Assembly: GCA_016284875.1 (NCBI GenBank)
Contig: JAEEPS010000004.1
Coordinates: 11,785-75,784 of the forward strand
Source: Salinivirgaceae bacterium
Lineage (GTDB): Bacteria > Bacteroidota > Bacteroidia > Bacteroidales > SZUA-534
DNA: 64,000 nt
Reading direction: 5' to 3'
The notes below the pieces were generated by a model that saw only the letters and a list, made by a program, of their open reading frames with translations, was not told the origin of the DNA and did not search any database. This document shows positions 103 through 8,532 of this stretch, in pieces (within the stretch, counting starts at the first letter, position 1; each line of letters begins with the position of its first letter). The position numbers and the translations under genes are program-made.

Positions 103-3100
103 TTATTTCCCATTTCTGAAGCGCAGGTACATCGCTTCGGCCATCTCTTTCATAACGCGCTCGTAGAACTGCGGGTCCTCGAACAGTTTTGAGAAGGCGT
201 CCATCTGTTCCATATAGCACGTTTCGGCTATCTCGTGGAAAGCCTTGGGGAAGATTGCCGAAGTGAACATTGCGGCATCGGTGTTTTTGGCCTGCTTCTT
301 CAGGGTGTCGCTGCCTTTGCTCATCCTGTCGAAAATGGTTTCGACAATCACGCGGTCGGCTTCAGTGAATTTGCCTGCATACATTAAGTTGATTTTGTCG
401 ATAATGTTTGCAAGCAGGTCGCGCTTATCGGTTTTGAACGCTCCCTGACCGCCGTTTTCAGCCTTGACCTTGTTCTGGCCGTGCTCCAACTGTATGCTGC
501 CGCTGAAGGTCTCTGTCAACTTGTTGTTGATTAGGGCAATTTTGTTTGTCAGGTCGACTATTTCGTGCGGATTCTTGGGCAGAAGTTTGTAAAGATACTC
601 GGTGAAGATATAGGTCTTGTAGAGTTCCTTGTCGAATGTGCGCACCACCTGCGCCATATAGGCGTAGAAGCGGTTGAAGTTGTGAATGAGGAACCGCACC
701 TTGAACTTTTCCTCCTCGGCCAACGTCTCGTAAGCCGCCATTACCGATTTGAAGGCGCTTGCCAACTTGCCCATATCGGTGCTGCTCTGCTTGGTGGCGG
801 AATATATCTTATAGACTTTCTCCTCATCGTCGGTGTTCCAAAGGTGGAATTGCTGAACATCGTTCAAATACTTGTAAACCATATTTATATCGACGCCTTC
901 CTCGAGTAGCGTGTCCTCGTAGAACGGCTGGAACGATTTTTTAATGCTTTCGGTGTCGTTGCTGAAATCGAGGACATAGGTGTCGTTCTTGCCTGGGCAA
1001 CTGCGGTTAAGGCGCGACAGGGTTTGAACGGCCTTCACGCCGCGCAACTTCTTCAACACAAACATTGTGTGCAAAAGCGGCTCGTCGAAGCCTGTCTGGT
1101 ATTTTTCGGCAACAATAAGAATGTTGTACATATCGCTGGCAAAGAACAGCGGCAGTTTGCCTTCAGAAATCTTTTCGCCGTCGGCCGAGTTGATTTGGCT
1201 CTCGGTGTACTCCACTCCGTTGAATTTCACGGCGCCGCTGAAAGCCACAAGTGGTCTTACATCGTCGTAGCCCTTGTGCTTGCAGTAGTCGCGCATTGCA
1301 AAGTAGAAGCGCACTGCGTGGGCGCGCGAGGGCGAAACGACCATTGCCTTGGCGCGGCCGCCAATCTTGTGCAGGGTTATCTCGCGGAACTTCTCAACCA
1401 TTACCTCCACAAGTTGCTCAATGACAAACTTATGACTGTCGTGGAAAGCCTTGACGGCGCGTGTTGCGGGCGGTTCCTCGTATTCGGGATTGTCTGACAC
1501 CGACTTGGCAATCTCGTATGAGGTGCCAATGGTGGTGTAGAATTTCAGCACATCGAGAATGAACCCTTCGTCGATAGCCTGCCGCATACTGTAGTGGTGG
1601 AAGGCATCGTAGCCTTTGTCGGTTTTGACGCCGAAGGTTTCGAGTGTTTTGGGCTTTGGTGTGGCTGTAAAGGCGTAGAAATAGAGGTTCTTGTGCTGAC
1701 CCTGCGTGAGCAGCGTCTCCATCATCACGTCCATTTCGTCTTTGAGTTCGGCCTCGGTCTTCTCCTCAATTTCGGCCATCTCGCGCAATGCCTCGTCGGT
1801 GTCGGCAAGGGCGGCTTTCAGTTTCTCGGCACTCTTGCCCGACTGCGAACTGTGCGCTTCATCGACAATAATGGCGAAGTTCTTGCCAATATGCTCATCC
1901 AACTCCTTGTAAATGATTGGGAAACGGTGAAGCGTGGTTATAATGATTCGCTTGCGGTCGTTGATTGCGTCTTCGAGCACCGAAGAGTTGTCTTTGTCGG
2001 TGATTGTGGCAATCTGCCCTTCCAAATGCTCGAAACCGAGAATGGTTGACTGCAGTTGGGCGTTGAGCACGCGGCGGTCGGTTACCACAAACACGGTTTG
2101 GAACATCTCCTTGTCGAGGTCGTTGTGAAGCGAGGCAAGGCGGTAGGTGAGCCACGCTATTGAGTTTGACTTGCCGCTGCCCGCCGAATGCTGCAACAGA
2201 TAGTTCTTTCCGCCGCTGCTGGCTCTGGTGTCGGCAATGAGTTTCTCAACCACATCCAACTGGTGATAGCGCGGGAAAATGAGGTAGGTGCTTTTCTTTT
2301 TCACCTGCTTGCCTTTTTCGAGCGATATTTTCTCTTCGGTAATCTTCGATATATAGCGCTGAAGCAGCGAGAGCAACATCTCGCGGTTGAGCACACGCTC
2401 CCACAGGTACGAGGTTGGATAGCCATTGGGGTTTTCGGGGTTGCCGCCGTCGCCAATGTTGCCCGCGCCGTTGCTGCCCTGATTGAACGGCAGGAATCGT
2501 GTGGCGGCGCCCTGCAACTGGGTTGTCATTGCCACTTCGTAGAGGTCGACGGCAAAGTAAGCCAATATGCGGGTGTTGAAGTTGAAAATGAGTTCTTTGG
2601 GGTCGCGGTCGTACATAAACTGGTGTTTGCCGTTGGCTACGCTCTGCCCCGTGAGTTGGTTCTTCAACTCGAGCGCCACAACGGGAATGCCGTTGACCGA
2701 CAAAACCATATCAATGGTGTTGTGGTTGTCGGTTGAGTAGGCGAACTGGCGTGTGCACTGCAGAATGTTGGCGTTGTAGCGGTCCACCAAATCGAGGTTC
2801 AGACTGCTGGCAGGCTTGAAGAAACAGAACTTGATTGCCACGCCGCGGTCCTTCACTCCGTTGCGCAGAACGTGAATGAGGCCGTAGTTGGCCACATCGG
2901 CTTGGAAAACCTTGTAGAGTTGGTCGGCTGACTTGTCGCCATAGAGGTTGACATAGCGCTGCCACACCTTTGGCTGGGTGGCCTGAATGAACTGCAACAG
3001 CACTGGCATATCAATAGCCCGCCGCTTGTCGTAGGTGCTTTGGTCGCCTTTCAGATAGCCGCCTTCGTTAAGAAGATAGGCTTCTATGTCGTTCTCGAAG

Positions 3101-3120
3101 TTCTTCTCTTTGGTCTGCAT
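103..3120 (-). CDS. hsdR: Type I restriction enzyme R subunit (HsdR), 1005 aa
   Basis: The N-terminal nuclease region shows MVLSVNGIPVVALELKN. Helicase motifs present are a Walker A QHSAGSGKS and a DEAH box IIVDEAHSSQSG. It lies in an operon with hsdM and hsdS. Confidence 0.95.
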   Translation of the reverse strand: MQTKEKNFENDIEAYLLNEGGYLKGDQSTYDKRRAIDMPVLLQFIQATQPKVWQRYVNLYGDKSADQLYKVFQADVANYGLIHVLRNGVKDRGVAIKFCFFKPASSLNLDLVDRYNANILQCTRQFAYSTDNHNTIDMVLSVNGIPVVALELKNQLTGQSVANGKHQFMYDRDPKELIFNFNTRILAYFAVDLYEVAMTTQLQGAATRFLPFNQGSNGAGNIGDGGNPENPNGYPTSYLWERVLNREMLLSLLQRYISKITEEKISLEKGKQVKKKSTYLIFPRYHQLDVVEKLIADTRASSGGKNYLLQHSAGSGKSNSIAWLTYRLASLHNDLDKEMFQTVFVVTDRRVLNAQLQSTILGFEHLEGQIATITDKDNSSVLEDAINDRKRIIITTLHRFPIIYKELDEHIGKNFAIIVDEAHSSQSGKSAEKLKAALADTDEALREMAEIEEKTEAELKDEMDVMMETLLTQGQHKNLYFYAFTATPKPKTLETFGVKTDKGYDAFHHYSMRQAIDEGFILDVLKFYTTIGTSYEIAKSVSDNPEYEEPPATRAVKAFHDSHKFVIEQLVEVMVEKFREITLHKIGGRAKAMVVSPSRAHAVRFYFAMRDYCKHKGYDDVRPLVAFSGAVKFNGVEYTESQINSADGEKISEGKLPLFFASDMYNILIVAEKYQTGFDEPLLHTMFVLKKLRGVKAVQTLSRLNRSCPGKNDTYVLDFSNDTESIKKSFQPFYEDTLLEEGVDINMVYKYLNDVQQFHLWNTDDEEKVYKIYSATKQSSTDMGKLASAFKSVMAAYETLAEEEKFKVRFLIHNFNRFYAYMAQVVRTFDKELYKTYIFTEYLYKLLPKNPHEIVDLTNKIALINNKLTETFSGSIQLEHGQNKVKAENGGQGAFKTDKRDLLANIIDKINLMYAGKFTEADRVIVETIFDRMSKGSDTLKKQAKNTDAAMFTSAIFPKAFHEIAETCYMEQMDAFSKLFEDPQFYERVMKEMAEAMYLRFRNGK

Positions 3121-3139: not shown

Positions 3140-4204
3140 TTAAAGATTGTTTCTTAAATGCTGCAGCATAATGCGAACATATTCGGGCTCTTTTGCGAAC
3201 AGGCGCTGTTTACGGCTGTTCCACGAGGCAATATCTTTTGTCACCACATCCACCAGACTATCTTCGTCCATATTACGCCACTCTTTCAATTCGGCTTTTG
3301 TTGTAAGCAAGAAATCGATTGTTGCAAGCAACTCCAGCGAATAATTGGAATAGAATCGGCCTAGAAAACTTTTTGTTCGGTTTGCTATTTCAAGATATTG
3401 GGCGTTCTCCTTACGCTGAAGCATTTCGTCGGCTGCGGCTTGAGCGTCGGAAGTGAGCCAAATCTCATCGAACGGACGCTTTGAGAGGTCGCTCATTCCC
3501 ATAATATAACTGCCGTTGAGATAGTGCAGGACATACCGCACCTTTCCAGAGTATGGACCATAAACACCTTGACTGAACGAGAGTTTGAACACATCCTGTG
3601 CACCAAACCGCTGAAGAAAGTAGGCGATTTTTTCGGCTGCGAATTCAGACACAAACTCGCCGTGCGCCACCATATCGGCCATAATGCTCAACATCATTGC
3701 GCGGGCGGGTGTGAGCGACACACGCTCTTTTTTCATCTTCTCGTTAATTGAGTCGGAAGGCTCGTAAATAACAATGTCGCAATCCAAGTCCTGCAGTTTA
3801 CCGACAATCATATCGCGAACCCTGTGCCAGTCGAGTCCGCCGTTTCGCGAACCCAGCGGCGGAATGGCTATTGATTTTATCTGTCGGCTGATTATCTCCT
3901 GTTTCAGCGCGTCGAGCCCCGATTCTATGTAACTGTACTCGGAAGGGCGCCGCCAATCGGTTTTGGTGGGGAAGTTGACAATAATTTTTTTTGCGCCTAT
4001 CAGTGTCAACGCTTCGGTGATTAGCATTTTGCCTGGCTGCAGATTGCCAAGTTTGCATTCTTTGCGGTAAATGGCATAATTGTCGGGGTAGGCTTCTTTG
4101 AACTGCAAGGCCAAACCTTTGCCCATCACGCCAACTGTGTTCACCGTGTTCACAATGGCTTCCGCCGTACTGTCGAGAATGTTCCCTTTGGTAAAAGTAA
4201 TCAT
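3140..4204 (-). CDS. darG: DarG-like antitoxin: N-terminal macrodomain plus C-terminal DarT-associated domain
   Basis: From the internal ATG at 4204 the protein starts MITFTKGNILDSTAEAIVNTVNTVGVMGKGLALQFKEAYP, a classic macrodomain signature. That start lies 4 nt after the darT stop. The longer ORF-track start at 4252 would overlap darT. Confidence 0.85.
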   Translation of the reverse strand: MITFTKGNILDSTAEAIVNTVNTVGVMGKGLALQFKEAYPDNYAIYRKECKLGNLQPGKMLITEALTLIGAKKIIVNFPTKTDWRRPSEYSYIESGLDALKQEIISRQIKSIAIPPLGSRNGGLDWHRVRDMIVGKLQDLDCDIVIYEPSDSINEKMKKERVSLTPARAMMLSIMADMVAHGEFVSEFAAEKIAYFLQRFGAQDVFKLSFSQGVYGPYSGKVRYVLHYLNGSYIMGMSDLSKRPFDEIWLTSDAQAAADEMLQRKENAQYLEIANRTKSFLGRFYSNYSLELLATIDFLLTTKAELKEWRNMDEDSLVDVVTKDIASWNSRKQRLFAKEPEYVRIMLQHLRNNL

Positions 4205-4208
4205 AGCG

Positions 4209-4847
4209 TTAAAAATAATATTCGGGCGCCACAATAATCCTGTTGTCGGCAACTCCCATTGAGATTAATTTCTGTTTTGACTCTTCGTTGTAAACAAAGA
4301 ATCCTGCAATACATTGGGCGGGAATTTCGTTTTTTATGAGCAATTCCGCCTGTTTCCGCCTTTGCAGGTCGAGGTCGTTATCATCTTTCCAATATTTTGC
4401 ATAGACATCGTCGACGCTCACCAGTTTGTCTAAATCTGGCAGTCTGTCCTGCTTGAAAAAGGTGGTGATTTCGGTAACGGCGTGTCCGTCGGTGAATATG
4501 CACTCCCAGCCTTGCTCAATCACTGTTTCTATTTTTATCACGCAATAAACAATGTTGTTGGGGTGATATTTTGTGACGCCATAACCTGTTTGAATGTTGA
4601 ACAGCATTGGTGTATGCGGACCGAAATAGAACGGTATGTAGTTGGACAACTGATAACCGTGGTGTGTTTCTTCTTCGCGTATTTTTATGATAGACTGGTT
4701 GCCTATGTGGATATAGTTTGGACTTGCGTTTGGCGAGTTGGGGTGCACAAATCCTTCTTTGAGCAAATACGGAATATTATCGATATGCGTAAGCCTGTAG
4801 GCATACACTATTTTTCCCCAATACGGTCTTACAATCTCCCTTGCCAT
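4209..4847 (-). CDS. darT: DarT-like DNA ADP-ribosyltransferase toxin (DUF4433)
   Basis: Motifs seen are YRLTHIDNIPYLL, YIPFYFGPHTPML, FTDGHA and RRKQAELLIK. These match the H-Y-E ART pattern of DUF4433. It sits immediately upstream of a macrodomain gene. Confidence 0.85.
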   Translation of the reverse strand: MAREIVRPYWGKIVYAYRLTHIDNIPYLLKEGFVHPNSPNASPNYIHIGNQSIIKIREEETHHGYQLSNYIPFYFGPHTPMLFNIQTGYGVTKYHPNNIVYCVIKIETVIEQGWECIFTDGHAVTEITTFFKQDRLPDLDKLVSVDDVYAKYWKDDNDLDLQRRKQAELLIKNEIPAQCIAGFFVYNEESKQKLISMGVADNRIIVAPEYYF

Positions 4848-5015: not shown

Positions 5016-6311
5016 TCACTCTTTGTATTCAGCCATAGTTTCGTCCATCAATTTTATTATTTGCTGTATTTCTTCTGAAGAGTATACGTTATATAAAAAA
5101 TCGCGTTTTTCGTCATATGTCATTCCTGCGAATGTTTTTTCACCAAGAGAACATTCCTTCTCGAAATATTTCGTTTGGTCATATTTTACCAAGTATTTGA
5201 TATTCTTCTCGTTAGCCTTCTTCAGCAAAATATTGGCGCAGTTATTTATTTTATTATTGCCGCCTTCTATGTGCAGCACCAAGTACAAATTATGGCTTTC
5301 GAACAAATCGGCATATGATATGGGAATCCATTCAAAATGTGGGGATAAATTGGAAATTTTCTGCCACTGGCCATTTTTGATTTGGTAGTATCCTCCGTTT
5401 GGTTCAATTTTGTTATTGTCTGCACAATCAAAACCATCCACTTTCTCAAAATACTCTTTGGTCAACTTCTGCAGATCTGCGGCAACTTGCCCGCCAAATT
5501 TGTTTACTTCGCTTTCCAATGCTCTTTCCAACTCTCGAACATTGTCGAACATCTTCTTTATTTCTGTAAAGTTTTCTTGTATACCCATTTCGCCAAGTAG
5601 TTTTTTAATTAATCTTTTTTGCGCCTGCCCTTGATAATCCAACTGTCCGAACCTTCCTTTCAGGTAGTCGATATACTGATATATTGCTGTCTCGAGACAC
5701 CGCTCTTTCACTTTGCAATTGGGCAGGACATCGTCTTCCAACCAAGGCAGAATGTTGTGCTGAAAACTCATCGGCATAAAACGTTTTCCGAGCGCTTTTT
5801 CAGTATCGGCGGACAGACTGCTGTCCGAAACGGCTTTGCTTCCATCAAGGGTTAGATATATGACATAGATTTTATCAATCGAAACGCCACGCTGGGTGTT
5901 TACAAATTTCACATATCGGTCAATCTGCTTGTACTGGTCGCCTGCAAACCATATTTTATTCTCAATGATAATGGCGTACTTGCCGCTCTCAATAACAACA
6001 CCGTCAATTCTTCCGTCGCTTGTCGGGTACTCTGTGTCAATGGTAGGGCGAGTTACTTGAATGTCGGCCTCGCCATCGCACAAATCGTTTATTCGGTTGA
6101 TAAAGGAACGCAGCCAAGGATATTCGCCATTCTCGGTGTATTGAAGCAACCGCATAAGTATTCGCGAATGAGCATTTTCGTTGTCGTGCAGTTCCTGAAT
6201 CACATTCAGACGATAAGGGAAATTTTCCTTTTCTTTCTGATACAGAACCGAATATCGTTGGGCGACTTTAATCAAGTCTTTGAATTGTTCTTCTATCTCT
6301 TGCAAATTCAT
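5016..6311 (-). CDS. PD-(D/E)XK nuclease family protein (PF14281/PDDEXK_4-like), 431 aa
   Basis: The N-terminus has NVIQELHDNENAHSRILMRLL, followed by GRIDGVVIESGKYAIIIENKIW, a D...E-x-K core. Its start overlaps the hsdS stop as ATGA at 6308-6311. Confidence 0.7.
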   Translation of the reverse strand: MNLQEIEEQFKDLIKVAQRYSVLYQKEKENFPYRLNVIQELHDNENAHSRILMRLLQYTENGEYPWLRSFINRINDLCDGEADIQVTRPTIDTEYPTSDGRIDGVVIESGKYAIIIENKIWFAGDQYKQIDRYVKFVNTQRGVSIDKIYVIYLTLDGSKAVSDSSLSADTEKALGKRFMPMSFQHNILPWLEDDVLPNCKVKERCLETAIYQYIDYLKGRFGQLDYQGQAQKRLIKKLLGEMGIQENFTEIKKMFDNVRELERALESEVNKFGGQVAADLQKLTKEYFEKVDGFDCADNNKIEPNGGYYQIKNGQWQKISNLSPHFEWIPISYADLFESHNLYLVLHIEGGNNKINNCANILLKKANEKNIKYLVKYDQTKYFEKECSLGEKTFAGMTYDEKRDFLYNVYSSEEIQQIIKLMDETMAEYKE

Positions 6312-7564
6312 TTCTCTACCTCCTTCTTCCCCGTTACATACTCGAATATGACTGATTTCTTGTACTCTTTCAACGCTTCAATCTTCTGCTGCTTTACGGC
6401 TATCAGTTCGTCTATCTCGGCGCACTTCTCATCGAGGTAGGCGGCTATGGCGCGCTGCTCGGCGAGAGGGGGAAATAGACAAAGAACTTTATAAAAGTTT
6501 GAATTGGACAAATTTTGAAGACCTACTACCATACCATTGGAAGCACCTGCTAATATCAGTTTGTACTGGTGACTATGAAACAGATATTCGAAATATTTCG
6601 GGCTTAATTCAACCAATGCTTCATATACACCATAATGAAAAGAGACCATACCCACATACTTTGAAGCAAACAACACCCCTAAATGTGCCTTAAAACGATT
6701 TAATACCAAATCGTTAACAACAACTCTTTTCCATCCTTCATATGTTGACGTTAGCATAGCCTTTTCTTTCATTTCCGAAGTAGGAATCAACCCGTCAACT
6801 TGTGACAACGATAAAGAAATGTCGCCTTTTTGTGGAAGTCTGACGTTTTCCTTAAAAACACGTCCACACTTTCTCACGTCCCACCCTTCTGGTATCTCCC
6901 CAATCCATTCCACGCCGCTGTCCTTCATTGGTGCGTTTTTGTTTAGGCCTTTGGTGACGGCTTCGGTAATGACGGACTGCTTGTAGCGTTTGAGTTCGTC
7001 AATCATTGTCTGCTGCAAGTCGGCGAGTTCGTCAATCTCGGCACATTTGCGGTCGAGGTAGTCGGCTATGCGCTGCTGGGTGGCGAGAGGGGGAGCGGCA
7101 ATTCCTAAAGCGGCAAATTCGTCATAAGTTAGTGAATACCTTATGTTTTTAGAGAGATATTTGTATTTTCTGCCGTCAAAAATGTAATCGAACCAATAAC
7201 CATAGAAAGCAGGGAAATATCCATCTAATGTTTTAAGCACTTTGTATGCAGGGGATATCATCCCGTGAAAATTGCTCACTCCAGAAAAAACGGCAGAACA
7301 ATCCAAATCAAACAAGCACATAACCAAATCATCTTTATTGACAACCTGGTATGTTTCATAGGAATCGGGGACTTTACCGCTCGTACTTCCGATTGCAACT
7401 TCTTTAACTCCCTTTGTCGTTAATGATAGTAATTGCGTATGACTCCAATCTTCACCAACAAGACTTTTGGAACAGGCAAATACATTTTTTGTTCTTACCA
7501 CCTTCCAATCACTCGGAATCATTCCAATCCACGGGACACCGCTGTCTTTGTATTTTGTAGCCAT
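6308..7564 (-). CDS. hsdS: Type I restriction enzyme specificity subunit (HsdS), two target-recognition domains
   Basis: Two conserved helical regions are present: PPLATQQRIADYLDRKCAEIDEL and PPLAEQRAIAAYLDEKCAEIDEL. I chose the ATG at 7564 (MATKYKDSGVPWIG). The ORF-track start at 7630 is a TTG that would overlap the upstream gene by about 60 nt. Confidence 0.9.
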   Translation of the reverse strand: MATKYKDSGVPWIGMIPSDWKVVRTKNVFACSKSLVGEDWSHTQLLSLTTKGVKEVAIGSTSGKVPDSYETYQVVNKDDLVMCLFDLDCSAVFSGVSNFHGMISPAYKVLKTLDGYFPAFYGYWFDYIFDGRKYKYLSKNIRYSLTYDEFAALGIAAPPLATQQRIADYLDRKCAEIDELADLQQTMIDELKRYKQSVITEAVTKGLNKNAPMKDSGVEWIGEIPEGWDVRKCGRVFKENVRLPQKGDISLSLSQVDGLIPTSEMKEKAMLTSTYEGWKRVVVNDLVLNRFKAHLGVLFASKYVGMVSFHYGVYEALVELSPKYFEYLFHSHQYKLILAGASNGMVVGLQNLSNSNFYKVLCLFPPLAEQRAIAAYLDEKCAEIDELIAVKQQKIEALKEYKKSVIFEYVTGKKEVEK

Positions 7565-7575
7565 AGTTTCAGTCC
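7547..7575. repeat. 29-nt perfect direct repeat, copy 1 (gene-end / hsdS-start junction)
   Basis: The sequence tttgtattttgtagccatagtttcagtcc is identical to 8515-8543. It contains GAC-TGA, a 4-nt spacer and ATGGCTACAAAATACAAA on the minus strand. Confidence 0.9.
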
Positions 7576-8414
7576 AAAAAATATTGTTTGCGGAAAGCGT
7601 CGTATTGTGGCGCGGCTTTAATGTCGCCAAGCATATCGTTGTAATATTTCATTTCAAAGTGGCAGGTGGGCCAATTCAGGCTTTTAATGAAATCATTGAT
7701 ATCTGTTATGGCATCCTTTGCTTCTTTTTCAATAATACATTCTATTCGCTTTTCGAGATAACTCTTGCTTCGTTTCGATTGTTTCTCCACAAGGTCTATG
7801 AAACGGTTTGTGGGCTTCCACGAAACGCTTTCGAAGACAATCTGTTTGCCGACATATACTTGCGGGTTTTCCAAATAATGGCGGTAAATGGCAAGCAAGT
7901 GTCGGTATAGTTGCGTGACGTTCAGATATATAAAATCGGAATTAACTTGTCTGAACTTTTTAATCCAAAGGGCAGAATTAGGAATGTTGCTGTAGTATTC
8001 ATCATTCAAATACGAACAAATAATTTTCTCATTTCCACTATAATATGGTTCAAGGTATTTGCTTTCCACAAAATGTATCTCGTTCGCAGTTTCGTATCGC
8101 ACATCGAGGTTGGCTGGTGGAATATTCCTTTCGGGAATTACCAATGGTGTTGATTCGTTCCACTCAAACCTCAATGCCGAAATCCTGCCTGTCTGCTCCA
8201 ACATTTTATAGTAGAATACGGCAAGGCGCGCGGAAGAGTTTATCTTTTCCAACTTTTTGTCGGGGTGTCCCGAACCTTTGTCCAATCCTTGAAAGCCATT
8301 GCTGAACAAAGGGATAACCGAGAAATCAGTGGTAAACTTATCTCCCTGAATATCAATACCACATTCTTCTTTGTAGTATTTGGCAATGAGTTGTTTGATT
8401 GCTGTCAGTTCCAT
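7569..8414 (-). CDS. Uncharacterised 281-aa protein inserted between hsdM and hsdS; possible PD-(D/E)XK-like motif
   Basis: This is a clean ORF with an ATG start, packed 4 nt from the hsdS start. I recognise no family. The segment NLDVRYETANEIHFVESKYLEP gives a D-x12-E-S-K pattern, preceded by KINSSARLAVFYY. It looks AT-richer than hsdM and hsdR by eye. Confidence 0.6.
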   Translation of the reverse strand: MELTAIKQLIAKYYKEECGIDIQGDKFTTDFSVIPLFSNGFQGLDKGSGHPDKKLEKINSSARLAVFYYKMLEQTGRISALRFEWNESTPLVIPERNIPPANLDVRYETANEIHFVESKYLEPYYSGNEKIICSYLNDEYYSNIPNSALWIKKFRQVNSDFIYLNVTQLYRHLLAIYRHYLENPQVYVGKQIVFESVSWKPTNRFIDLVEKQSKRSKSYLEKRIECIIEKEAKDAITDINDFIKSLNWPTCHFEMKYYNDMLGDIKAAPQYDAFRKQYFLD

Positions 8415-8421
8415 ATTCCCG

Positions 8422-8532
8422 CTATCCCAAAATTTTGTTCATCAGTTCGGTTTCGCGCGCGCCTAACTCTTTGAGGTGGGCGAAGATATTGTCGCTCGAC
8501 TCCAAAGGCACGTATTTGTATTTTGTAGCCAT
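8422..8532 (-). pseudogene. 36-codon chimeric relic: hsdS start (MATKYK) fused to the hsdM C-terminus
   Basis: The minus-strand translation is MATKYKYVPLESSDNIFAHLKELGARETELMNKILG-stop. Its first 6 codons equal the hsdS start. The remainder equals the HsdM tail YKYVPLESSDNIFAHLKELEAKETELMNKILGK. Confidence 0.65.
8465..8520. repeat. 56-nt perfect direct repeat, copy 1 (hsdM 3' coding sequence)
   Basis: The sequence aactctttgaggtgggcgaagatattgtcgctcgactccaaaggcacgtatttgta is identical to 9715-9770. Imperfect similarity continues to about 8424 and 9671 respectively. Confidence 0.9.

Follow-up and report, generated by a model that had tools for sequence, protein, structure and literature searches.

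The REase-ARP family of PD-(D/E)XK nucleases (Pfam PF22558) has been described only in silico, with members noted in actinobacteria, planctomycetes, and proteobacteria (Iyer et al. 2022, PMC9503650). In that description, to which the family name is traced indirectly, REase-ARP genes occur in systems with an ADP-ribosylglycohydrolase and a phosphatase, where WYL or Nudix transcription factors act as regulators (PMC9503650). A separate line of work has developed a guilt-by-embedding rationale, in which genes lying inside restriction-modification (R-M) systems become candidates for a role in defence (Payne et al., bioRxiv 10.1101/2024.01.29.577857). Here we describe a gene to which both lines apply, found in a stretch of 64,000 nucleotides from a Salinivirgaceae bacterium (assembly GCA_016284875.1, contig JAEEPS010000004.1, positions 11,785 to 75,784; the whole stretch is referred to as the window). 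The gene, ORF281, is an open reading frame (ORF) of 281 amino acids with an ATG start at positions 7569 to 8414 on the minus strand, exactly where an earlier reading of the sequence (the original prediction) had placed it. Its product is predicted to be a stand-alone REase-ARP nuclease, and we consider it probable, with moderate confidence, that it is an autonomous accessory effector that most likely acts on DNA and travels as a passenger of a Type I R-M operon.

The original prediction could assign ORF281 to no family and proposed it as a novel effector, and on both counts the profile searches lead elsewhere. The sole Pfam match of the protein (hmmscan) is PF22558, with an expect value (E) of 4.5e-6 and a score of 26.9 bits, residues 73-199 aligning with positions 96-203 of the 270-position profile. 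The same profile is matched by 24 of 30 aligned relatives (best E 3e-12), and PF22558 is also the precomputed Pfam assignment of most ORF281 homologues in a database of 5.8 billion proteins. Two profiles were then compared, one of the ORF281 clade (A1) and one of clear-cut PF22558 members (A2, including proteins that score 57-89 bits); hhalign aligns them with a probability of 99.9% and an E of 3.4e-37 over 239 columns, corresponding to residues 35-279. A search with A1 retrieves members that score 57-89 bits on PF22558 (from loci L027, L031 and L032; L-numbers denote loci of relatives or of sister hsdM genes) at E 1e-13 to 1e-15. Distant members of the family also pass the threshold of PF20796 (PDDEXK_13), scoring 28-31 bits where the gathering score is 27. 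Judged by homology, ORF281 belongs to PF22558 REase-ARP, and neither its fold nor its family is novel. The YhcG_C (PF06250) and DUF1016_N (PF17761) profiles gave no match in the Pfam scan of ORF281, and the larger fusion proteins that were scanned (P0153, P0158-P0160, P0162, P0165, P0186 and P0192) held no informative partner domains. The family is rare: among 1.84 billion proteins, the number of representative clusters that match is 558 at E ≤ 0.001 and 35 at E ≤ 1e-30. It is also nearly absent from phages, being found in 2 of 2.9 million viral contigs and having no PHROG match.

The restriction fold is characterized by an alpha-beta-beta-beta-alpha-beta core in which an aspartate starts the second strand and a (D/E)xK motif lies on the third. 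An AlphaFold2 model of ORF281 built on A1 (mean predicted local distance difference test score, pLDDT, 85.9; predicted TM-score, pTM, 0.88) has a core of this order, consisting of a helix (residues 61-74), three strands (79-85, 103-109 and 112-120), a second helix (166-182) and a fourth strand (191-199), after which come the C-terminal half, which is helical, and one final strand. In the model, strand 1 contains E84, strand 2 has D104 at its start, strand 3 bears E117 and K119, and the helix that follows carries Q168 and H172; the modelled core thus has the PD-(D/E)XK layout, and E84, D104, E117 and K119 are the predicted catalytic residues. The peptides KINSSARLAVFYY and NLDVRYETANEIHFVESKYLEP are both found in the translation, and the D-x12-E-S-K arrangement to which the original prediction drew attention is present, with 12 residues between D104 and E117 and then S118 and K119. 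None of the four residues E84, D104, E117 and K119 varies among 30 relatives, nor among 20 distant family members whose mean column identity is 23%, and so the motif is not a product of chance. Other residues invariant in the family are N59, S61, E122, Q168 and H172, and all nine align with invariant columns of A2 (INSS, FE, D, ExK, LEP and Q-x3-H).

ORF281 was also expected to be richer in AT than the hsd genes around it, and this is so: its GC content is 0.400 (0.457 at third codon positions, GC3), against 0.538 (GC3 0.756) for hsdM and 0.519 (GC3 0.716) for hsdR. The ratio of nonsynonymous to synonymous divergence (dN/dS) against five homologues is 0.12-0.40, which amounts to purifying selection and hence marks ORF281 as a real gene.

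The island that carries ORF281 is encoded entirely on the minus strand in the order hsdM, DUF1016, a 35-codon scar ORF, ORF281, hsdS, PDDEXK_4, DarT, DarG and hsdR. The three R-M genes were recognized by their Pfam domains: hsdM (9669-11477; HsdM_N and N6_Mtase), hsdS (6308-7564; Methylase_S) and hsdR (103-3120; HSDR_N, SWI2_SNF2/ResIII and T1R_D3-like). The complete DUF1016/YhcG PD-(D/E)XK gene (8537-9664; PADLOC candidate PDC-S02) has an ATG at 9664 that overlaps the hsdM stop, and the likely start of hsdS is the ATG at 7564, 4 nt past the ORF281 stop. ORF281 is thus wedged between hsdM and hsdS, as first described, only in a loose sense, as the DUF1016 gene and the scar ORF (8424-8531) separate it from hsdM. 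The accompanying idea that this slot is the usual place of DUF1016-type accessory nucleases was right about the slot, except that a DUF1016 gene is already there as the first passenger and ORF281 is the second in tandem. No terminator-like site was found on the coding strand from hsdM to hsdR, which is consistent with one operon; a sigma-70 promoter scan is uninformative for Bacteroidales, and only the absence of terminator sites is relied on here. With regard to embedding, ORF281 is nested within one R-M system, lies on the same strand, and is not a mobility or housekeeping gene.

The position of ORF281 can be compared with the same interval in 80 metagenomic sister loci (L056-L135), in which hsdM is 71-90% identical to that of the window. 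In most of these hsdS directly follows hsdM, leaving the slot empty, and DUF1016 fills it in six. The other occupants are a Fic-domain protein of about 290 aa, RhuM or RhuM-Fic, a SIR2-like protein (SIR2_2), AAA_14-DUF4143, an IS200 transposase and an unknown 219-aa protein; X, which stands for ORF281 or its homologue in a gene order, occurs in none of the 80 and is best described as rare in the slot. The interval between hsdS and hsdR is equally variable in these loci, with recurrent unannotated genes of about 307, 372, 431 and 615 aa. Both intervals are polymorphic passenger slots in this Type I family, and the status of ORF281 as one rare option among unrelated passengers argues against its being an integral R-M subunit.

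The expectation that homologues would recur between hsdM and hsdS is borne out in the closest clade (59-99% identity), where every readable full-length locus has the order hsdM-X-hsdS. The surroundings of this trio vary: it is followed by BrxA, BrxB, BrxC and PglX in L033-35 and by ApeA, GmrSD and hsdR in L038, is preceded by ART-PolyVal and NADAR genes in L036-37, occurs in L042-44, and in L045-48 forms part of the order hsdM-X-hsdS-PDDEXK_4-(213 aa)-hsdR. Two loci are decayed (L040-41), having a frameshifted DUF1016 followed by X, and lack hsdM and a full hsdS. In L040 (6917-8831) the frameshift splits DUF1016 into parts of 187 aa and 186 aa, immediately after which comes an intact REase-ARP gene, and of hsdS no more than a stub is left; the tandem of DUF1016 and X seen in the window therefore recurs there, at 59% identity.

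Such a constant position, with spacers of a few nucleotides, invites comparison with prrC, which is embedded in the EcoprrI system (Loenen et al. 2013, PMC3874165). ORF281 might by analogy be a guard, held latent in the Type I complex and freed to kill the infected cell when a phage anti-restriction protein disables HsdMSR. The R-M clade has lost the WYL regulator of other family members, so that some other control would be needed. The family is nevertheless found in many contexts without hsd genes, the copy in L040 remains intact where hsdM is missing and hsdS incomplete, and the same slot is used by the unrelated Fic, RhuM, SIR2 and DUF1016 passengers. ORF281 carries no PrrC-like ATPase or sensor domain, as both the ABC-ATPase-like N-domain and the anticodon nuclease C-domain are absent from it by Pfam, and in the window it shows no decay although DUF1016 and the scar stand between it and hsdM. 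On this evidence a PrrC-like guard is an unlikely role for ORF281.

Beyond the closest clade the expectation of R-M linkage fails for most relatives. Among those in reference genomes (31-42% identity), only one of 26 Bacteroidales loci is embedded in an R-M system, so that the family divides in two, an R-M clade and a class linked to WYL. In about 20 of the 26 a protein of about 300 aa with WYL and WCX domains is encoded directly upstream in the same orientation, and hsd genes are absent within 8 kb. The WYL-linked loci often have nearby sigma-70-like, MBL-fold, calcineurin-like phosphoesterase (PADLOC PDC-S10) and truncated or fragmentary DnaE-like genes. The single embedded case, L020, represents a second, independent R-M-embedded lineage, and its order (10172-13537) is hsdM-X-hsdS, three unannotated genes (244, 213 and 282 aa), a CAP12/Pycsar-type TIR effector and then hsdR. 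In a neighbour-joining tree the R-M-embedded copies form one derived clade and its sister branch, with the WYL-linked copies basal; as far as this tree goes, R-M association is a property of one derived clade and not of the whole family.

A recurrent Bacteroidales module can be recognized among the WYL-linked loci (L054 3276-8706; L136 2462-7880; L001 2317-5153; L051 4364-7837), in which a truncated DnaE-like gene is divergent from the WYL+WCX regulator, followed by REase-ARP and then by a sigma-70-like gene, a Metallophos-like gene or both. The DnaE-like gene has PHP, pol3 alpha and finger domains and measures 806 aa, although often only fragments of 166-195 aa are present. To our knowledge this combination is not recognized as a named system.

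Two further relatives lie in other types of island. In L027 the order is NERD, a UvrD-type helicase, X, an unannotated gene and GmrSD_N. In L028 (2-15294, from a Kofleriaceae metagenome-assembled genome) the REase-ARP domain is the C-terminus of a 1532-aa methylase of Eco57I/MmeI type with DUF7008, the PglX-like component of a Pgl/BREX-type-2-like system that also includes a NERD and Ser/Thr kinase protein (PglW-like), PglZ and a weak DUF6079/PglY-like protein. The fusion places a nuclease domain in a Pgl/BREX-type-2-like system, a type that, so far as we are aware, is usually described as lacking a nuclease.

The L028 fusion implies that a REase-ARP domain can supply the cleavage function of an enzyme built around a methylase, and by extension ORF281 could dock on HsdM2S1 as an alternative nuclease module, cleaving in a sequence-directed manner, whether without HsdR or alongside it. 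In L028 the fusion stands alongside NERD-kinase and PglZ genes. L036, where no hsdR is seen within 8 kb downstream of hsdM-X-hsdS, also fits docking. Since the window, L045, L047, L038 and L020 all have an intact hsdR, most sister loci have an empty slot yet still possess hsdR, and the WYL-linked relatives have no methylase partner, we regard docking as very improbable.

How ORF281 reached its present position can be read in part from its flanks, which carry the two sets of duplicated junction sequences that had been noted earlier. One is a direct repeat of 110 nt, in which a copy of the hsdM 3′ end at 8411-8520 has 84% identity to the resident hsdM 3′ end at 9661-9770 and is almost the same as the hsdM tail in L045. 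The other is a junction repeat at 7544-7575 (GGACTGAAACTATGGCTACAAAATACAAAGAC on the minus strand) that spans the last codon and stop of ORF281, the 4-nt spacer and the start of hsdS; its second copy, at 8512-8543, is 97% identical and runs from the end of DUF1016 into the beginning of the scar ORF. The 35-codon ORF at 8424-8531 (minus strand) is chimeric, with MATKYK, from the start of hsdS, fused to an L045-type hsdM C-terminus, YVPLESSDNIFAHLKELGARETELMNKILG, and its stop. It begins with ATGGCTACAAAATACAAA, the same as the start of the true hsdS at 7564, and continues with TACGTGCCTTTGG... of the L045-type hsdM tail. The simplest explanation of this scar would be a crossover at a 6-bp microhomology, TACAAA, the crossover point itself being inferred.

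The segment of the window from 8520 to 7499, which takes in the final 100 bp of an hsdM, ORF281 and the beginning of hsdS, matches L045 at 97.5% identity. Outside this block identity to L045 is 86.6% for hsdM, 85% for hsdR and 93.7% for PDDEXK_4. The synonymous divergence (dS) from L045 is 0.024 for ORF281, as against 0.129 for PDDEXK_4, 0.577 for hsdM and 0.80 for hsdR, a pattern that marks the ORF281 block as recently exchanged and agrees with the earlier suggestion that it arrived as a cassette from another hsdM-X-hsdS locus. The converse history, in which ORF281 was the resident and DUF1016 the newcomer, was considered and rejected, as it is the X block that dS identifies as recently exchanged (0.024, versus 0.58 for hsdM and 0.80 for hsdR); the direction of physical insertion is unproven.

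A block so much younger than its flanks (dS 0.024 versus 0.58-0.80) is also what a spreading element would leave, and ORF281 might then be a selfish homing nuclease that cuts empty hsdM-hsdS junctions; another function outside defence would be that of a repair or damage-response nuclease under a WYL damage sensor, in keeping with the WYL-X operons of several loci, which are paired divergently with a gene for a truncated DnaE-like polymerase (PHP, pol3 alpha, finger). Homing is not needed to account for slot polymorphism, given that non-nuclease passengers occupy the same slot, and the absence of X from all 80 sister hsdM loci indicates that X is not spreading efficiently. The DnaE-like genes are often short fragments, and every context without WYL is an overt defence island (R-M, BREX/Pgl, GmrSD, NERD, ApeA or DarTG). 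A role of either kind outside defence therefore seems to us very improbable.

The reading that we favour, that of an autonomous accessory nuclease, is drawn from the intact active site, the evidence of selection, the co-orientation and tight spacing within the operon, the neighbouring defence genes, and a family that is mostly independent of hsd. It gains support from L040, which retains an intact X beside a decayed DUF1016 and without hsdM or a full hsdS, and from the relatives found behind a UvrD helicase of a NERD/GmrSD island or as a fused domain of a PglX-like methylase. The islands of ORF281 and its relatives contain DarTG, PDC-S02, PDC-S26, BREX, ApeA, GmrSD and the CAP12 TIR protein, and ORF281 is a reasonable but unsurprising candidate for a phage-defence gene.

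Under this reading, ORF281 would be a stand-alone, metal (Mg)-dependent endonuclease residing in the polymorphic hsdM-hsdS slot. It would probably be transcribed together with the R-M operon, because the spacers are short (4 nt to the hsdS ATG) and the coding strand lacks terminator-like sites, and would act independently of HsdM, HsdS and HsdR. As a second-line anti-phage effector it may cleave phage DNA or, suicidally, that of the host. Its ancestors were presumably the second gene of cassettes led by a WYL regulator, with control exerted by this ligand-gated protein, and one lineage would have shed the regulator and been captured into the hsdM-X-hsdS slot. The conserved flanks, an hsdM 3′ end and an hsdS 5′ start, would permit moves between R-M loci by recombination, and in the window an L045-type block (hsdM tail and ORF281) was probably joined behind the resident DUF1016 at TACAAA, leaving the 35-codon scar.

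Several observations weigh against the autonomous nuclease reading. The PF22558 score of ORF281 falls 0.1 bit below the gathering score of 27, neither PADLOC v2 nor PHROGs returned a match for it, and none of the literature searched names or tests REase-ARP or PF22558; NCBIfam likewise gave no match, and no PADLOC family matches the X of L001 or of L020 either. Of the structure and profile searches that had been proposed, the profiles (PF22558 and hhalign) and the topology of the model favour a nuclease, while Foldseek found no match at E ≤ 0.001 (best E 0.029 in the Protein Data Bank, PDB, and 1.3e-3 in BFVD), and the fold assignment therefore rests on Pfam, the hhalign profiles and model topology. 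The PDB top list from Foldseek, non-significant as it is, consists almost entirely of restriction-fold nucleases: AF1548, the Avs3 nuclease domain, R.BspD6I, the R2 restriction-like endonuclease, McrC, HamA, SfsA, Vsr and RecU. These weak matches, together with the Pfam match, the PDDEXK_13 matches of relatives and the model topology, agree with the PD-(D/E)XK fold originally suggested. AF1548 (PDB 1y88) ranks first both in Foldseek (E 0.029) and in a PDB sequence-profile search (E 0.19, residues 79-134, covering the three catalytic strands), though neither match is significant; the TM-scores of ORF281 against AF1548 and other solved restriction-fold nucleases are 0.24-0.35, and its helical C-terminal part (residues 200-281) lacks a counterpart among solved structures. 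A direct search of PDB sequences with ORF281 gave chance matches only (phytase, E 0.039; ribosomal protein L36e).

Genomic context also counts in part against autonomy. The full-length loci of the closest clade all have the order hsdM-X-hsdS with tight spacing, and because of this constancy there may be a functional tie to HsdM/S within that clade. How a constitutively co-expressed nuclease spares host DNA without the WYL regulator remains unexplained, and the truncated DnaE-like gene of the WYL modules could point to the repair of DNA damage and not to defence.

The neighbours of ORF281 bear on one more explanation, which ties the nuclease to ADP-ribose. A complete DarT-DarG toxin-antitoxin defence pair (3140-4847, minus strand) is embedded between PDDEXK_4 (PF14281; 5016-6311, minus strand; PADLOC candidate PDC-S26), itself a nuclease-like passenger of the hsdS-hsdR slot, and hsdR. 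By Pfam and PADLOC scans, the pair comprises DarT, a single-stranded DNA (ssDNA) ADP-ribosyltransferase toxin (4209-4847), and DarG, a macrodomain antitoxin (3140-4252), for which the true start is probably near 4204. In the otherwise similar islands of L045 and L047 an unannotated 213-aa gene stands where the window has DarTG. Directly upstream of hsdM is a pair of DUF3791 (74 aa) and DUF3990 (163 aa) genes (11830-12542, minus strand), after which comes an unannotated 75-aa ORF (11606-11833); L036 has its ART-PolyVal and NADAR genes at the position equivalent to that pair.

Given that the family was defined through its association with systems in which ADP-ribosylglycohydrolases and phosphatases come with WYL or Nudix regulators (PMC9503650), ORF281 might recognize ADP-ribosylated DNA, or the lesions that result from it, and so complement DarT-type toxins. 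The presence of DarT and DarG in the same operon is in line with this, as are the DUF3990/DUF3791 pair just upstream of hsdM, the ART-PolyVal and NADAR genes directly upstream of hsdM-X-hsdS in L036, and the phosphoesterases (Metallophos, MBL fold and PHP-DnaE-like) that recur beside relatives. DarT and DarG, two genes away from ORF281, are the only ADP-ribose genes that a Pfam scan found among the eight operon genes, and the scan detected neither ADP-ribosylglycohydrolase nor rhodanese-type phosphatase domains in them; this lack concerns the genomic neighbourhood and leaves homology to the family untouched. Against the link, ADP-ribose genes occur in only two of about seven independent close-clade contexts, the unknown 213-aa gene replaces DarTG in the same island of L045, relatives of DarT and DarG were not found in L001-L032, and systems mix by chance in defence islands. 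We accordingly rate the ADP-ribose link as highly improbable. More broadly, the ORF281 of the R-M clade might be a conditional nuclease licensed elsewhere in the island, either as a PrrC-like guard or as a cutter of DNA ADP-ribosylated by DarT-type enzymes; taken as a whole this is a speculative proposal that we think unlikely, though not far-fetched. If true, the version dependent on ADP-ribosylation would be a new kind of modification-dependent restriction and would account for the family's association with enzymes that process ADP-ribose.

Some additional features were encountered in and around the island. The coding region of DUF1016 contains two copies of a 27-nt palindrome (AATTGGGGCAAC.GTTGCCCCAATT) at 9272-9298 and 9339-9365, 40 nt apart, and both fall in an apparent insertion of about 28 residues within the DUF1016_N domain. 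Outside the island (12983-16236) are a small MazG-type pyrophosphohydrolase gene (12983-13318, plus strand) and a gene for a large 782-aa membrane protein followed by a 123-aa gene, the latter two resembling, as judged by sequence, a sensor-repressor pair of BlaR1/BlaI type.

If ORF281 is an active effector, a rare restriction-fold family would join the defence genes that ride inside Type I R-M systems, and it would be one that current PADLOC models miss. Current ideas are not overturned by this, and ORF281 fits the guilt-by-embedding picture (Payne et al.). The window offers a clean molecular record of passenger movement, in which the hsdM tail and hsdS start serve as recombination handles and the swap is dated by the 35-codon scar and a gap of more than 20-fold in synonymous divergence. 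As one family in three settings, a WYL cassette, a PglX fusion and an unregulated R-M slot, REase-ARP would be a tractable system for studying the control of a nuclease with toxic potential after the loss of its regulator.

With regard to known systems, ORF281 resembles the REase-ARP proteins of PMC9503650 in its full-length homology (hhalign 99.9%), in the shared INSS, FE, D, ExK, LEP and Q-x3-H signatures, and in that those proteins too are predicted effector nucleases of conflict systems, often with a WYL regulator; it differs in having no ADP-ribosylglycohydrolase, rhodanese-phosphatase, Nudix or WYL partner and in occupying a Type I hsdM-hsdS slot in Bacteroidales. Defence cassettes led by a WYL regulator are known from the BrxR/CapW type. 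Relatives of ORF281 at 31-42% identity likewise lie directly downstream of a gene encoding a WYL+WCX protein (about 300 aa), whereas the 64-kb window has no WYL gene, nor any sigma-like, MBL or Metallophos relative, and the R-M-embedded clade has dispensed with the regulator. With DUF1016/YhcG (PF06250, PDC-S02) and PDDEXK_4 (PF14281, PDC-S26), both of which are present in its own operon, ORF281 has in common that it is a single-gene PD-(D/E)XK protein encoded on the same strand inside a Type I R-M system, yet there is no detectable sequence relationship and ORF281 is much rarer. PrrC, from the EcoprrI Type IC operon, is likewise an accessory nuclease whose gene is embedded in a Type I hsd operon, but it is an ABC-ATPase-like tRNA nuclease dependent on the R-M complex, in contrast to ORF281, which is predicted to be a single restriction-fold domain from a family that lives mostly without R-M.

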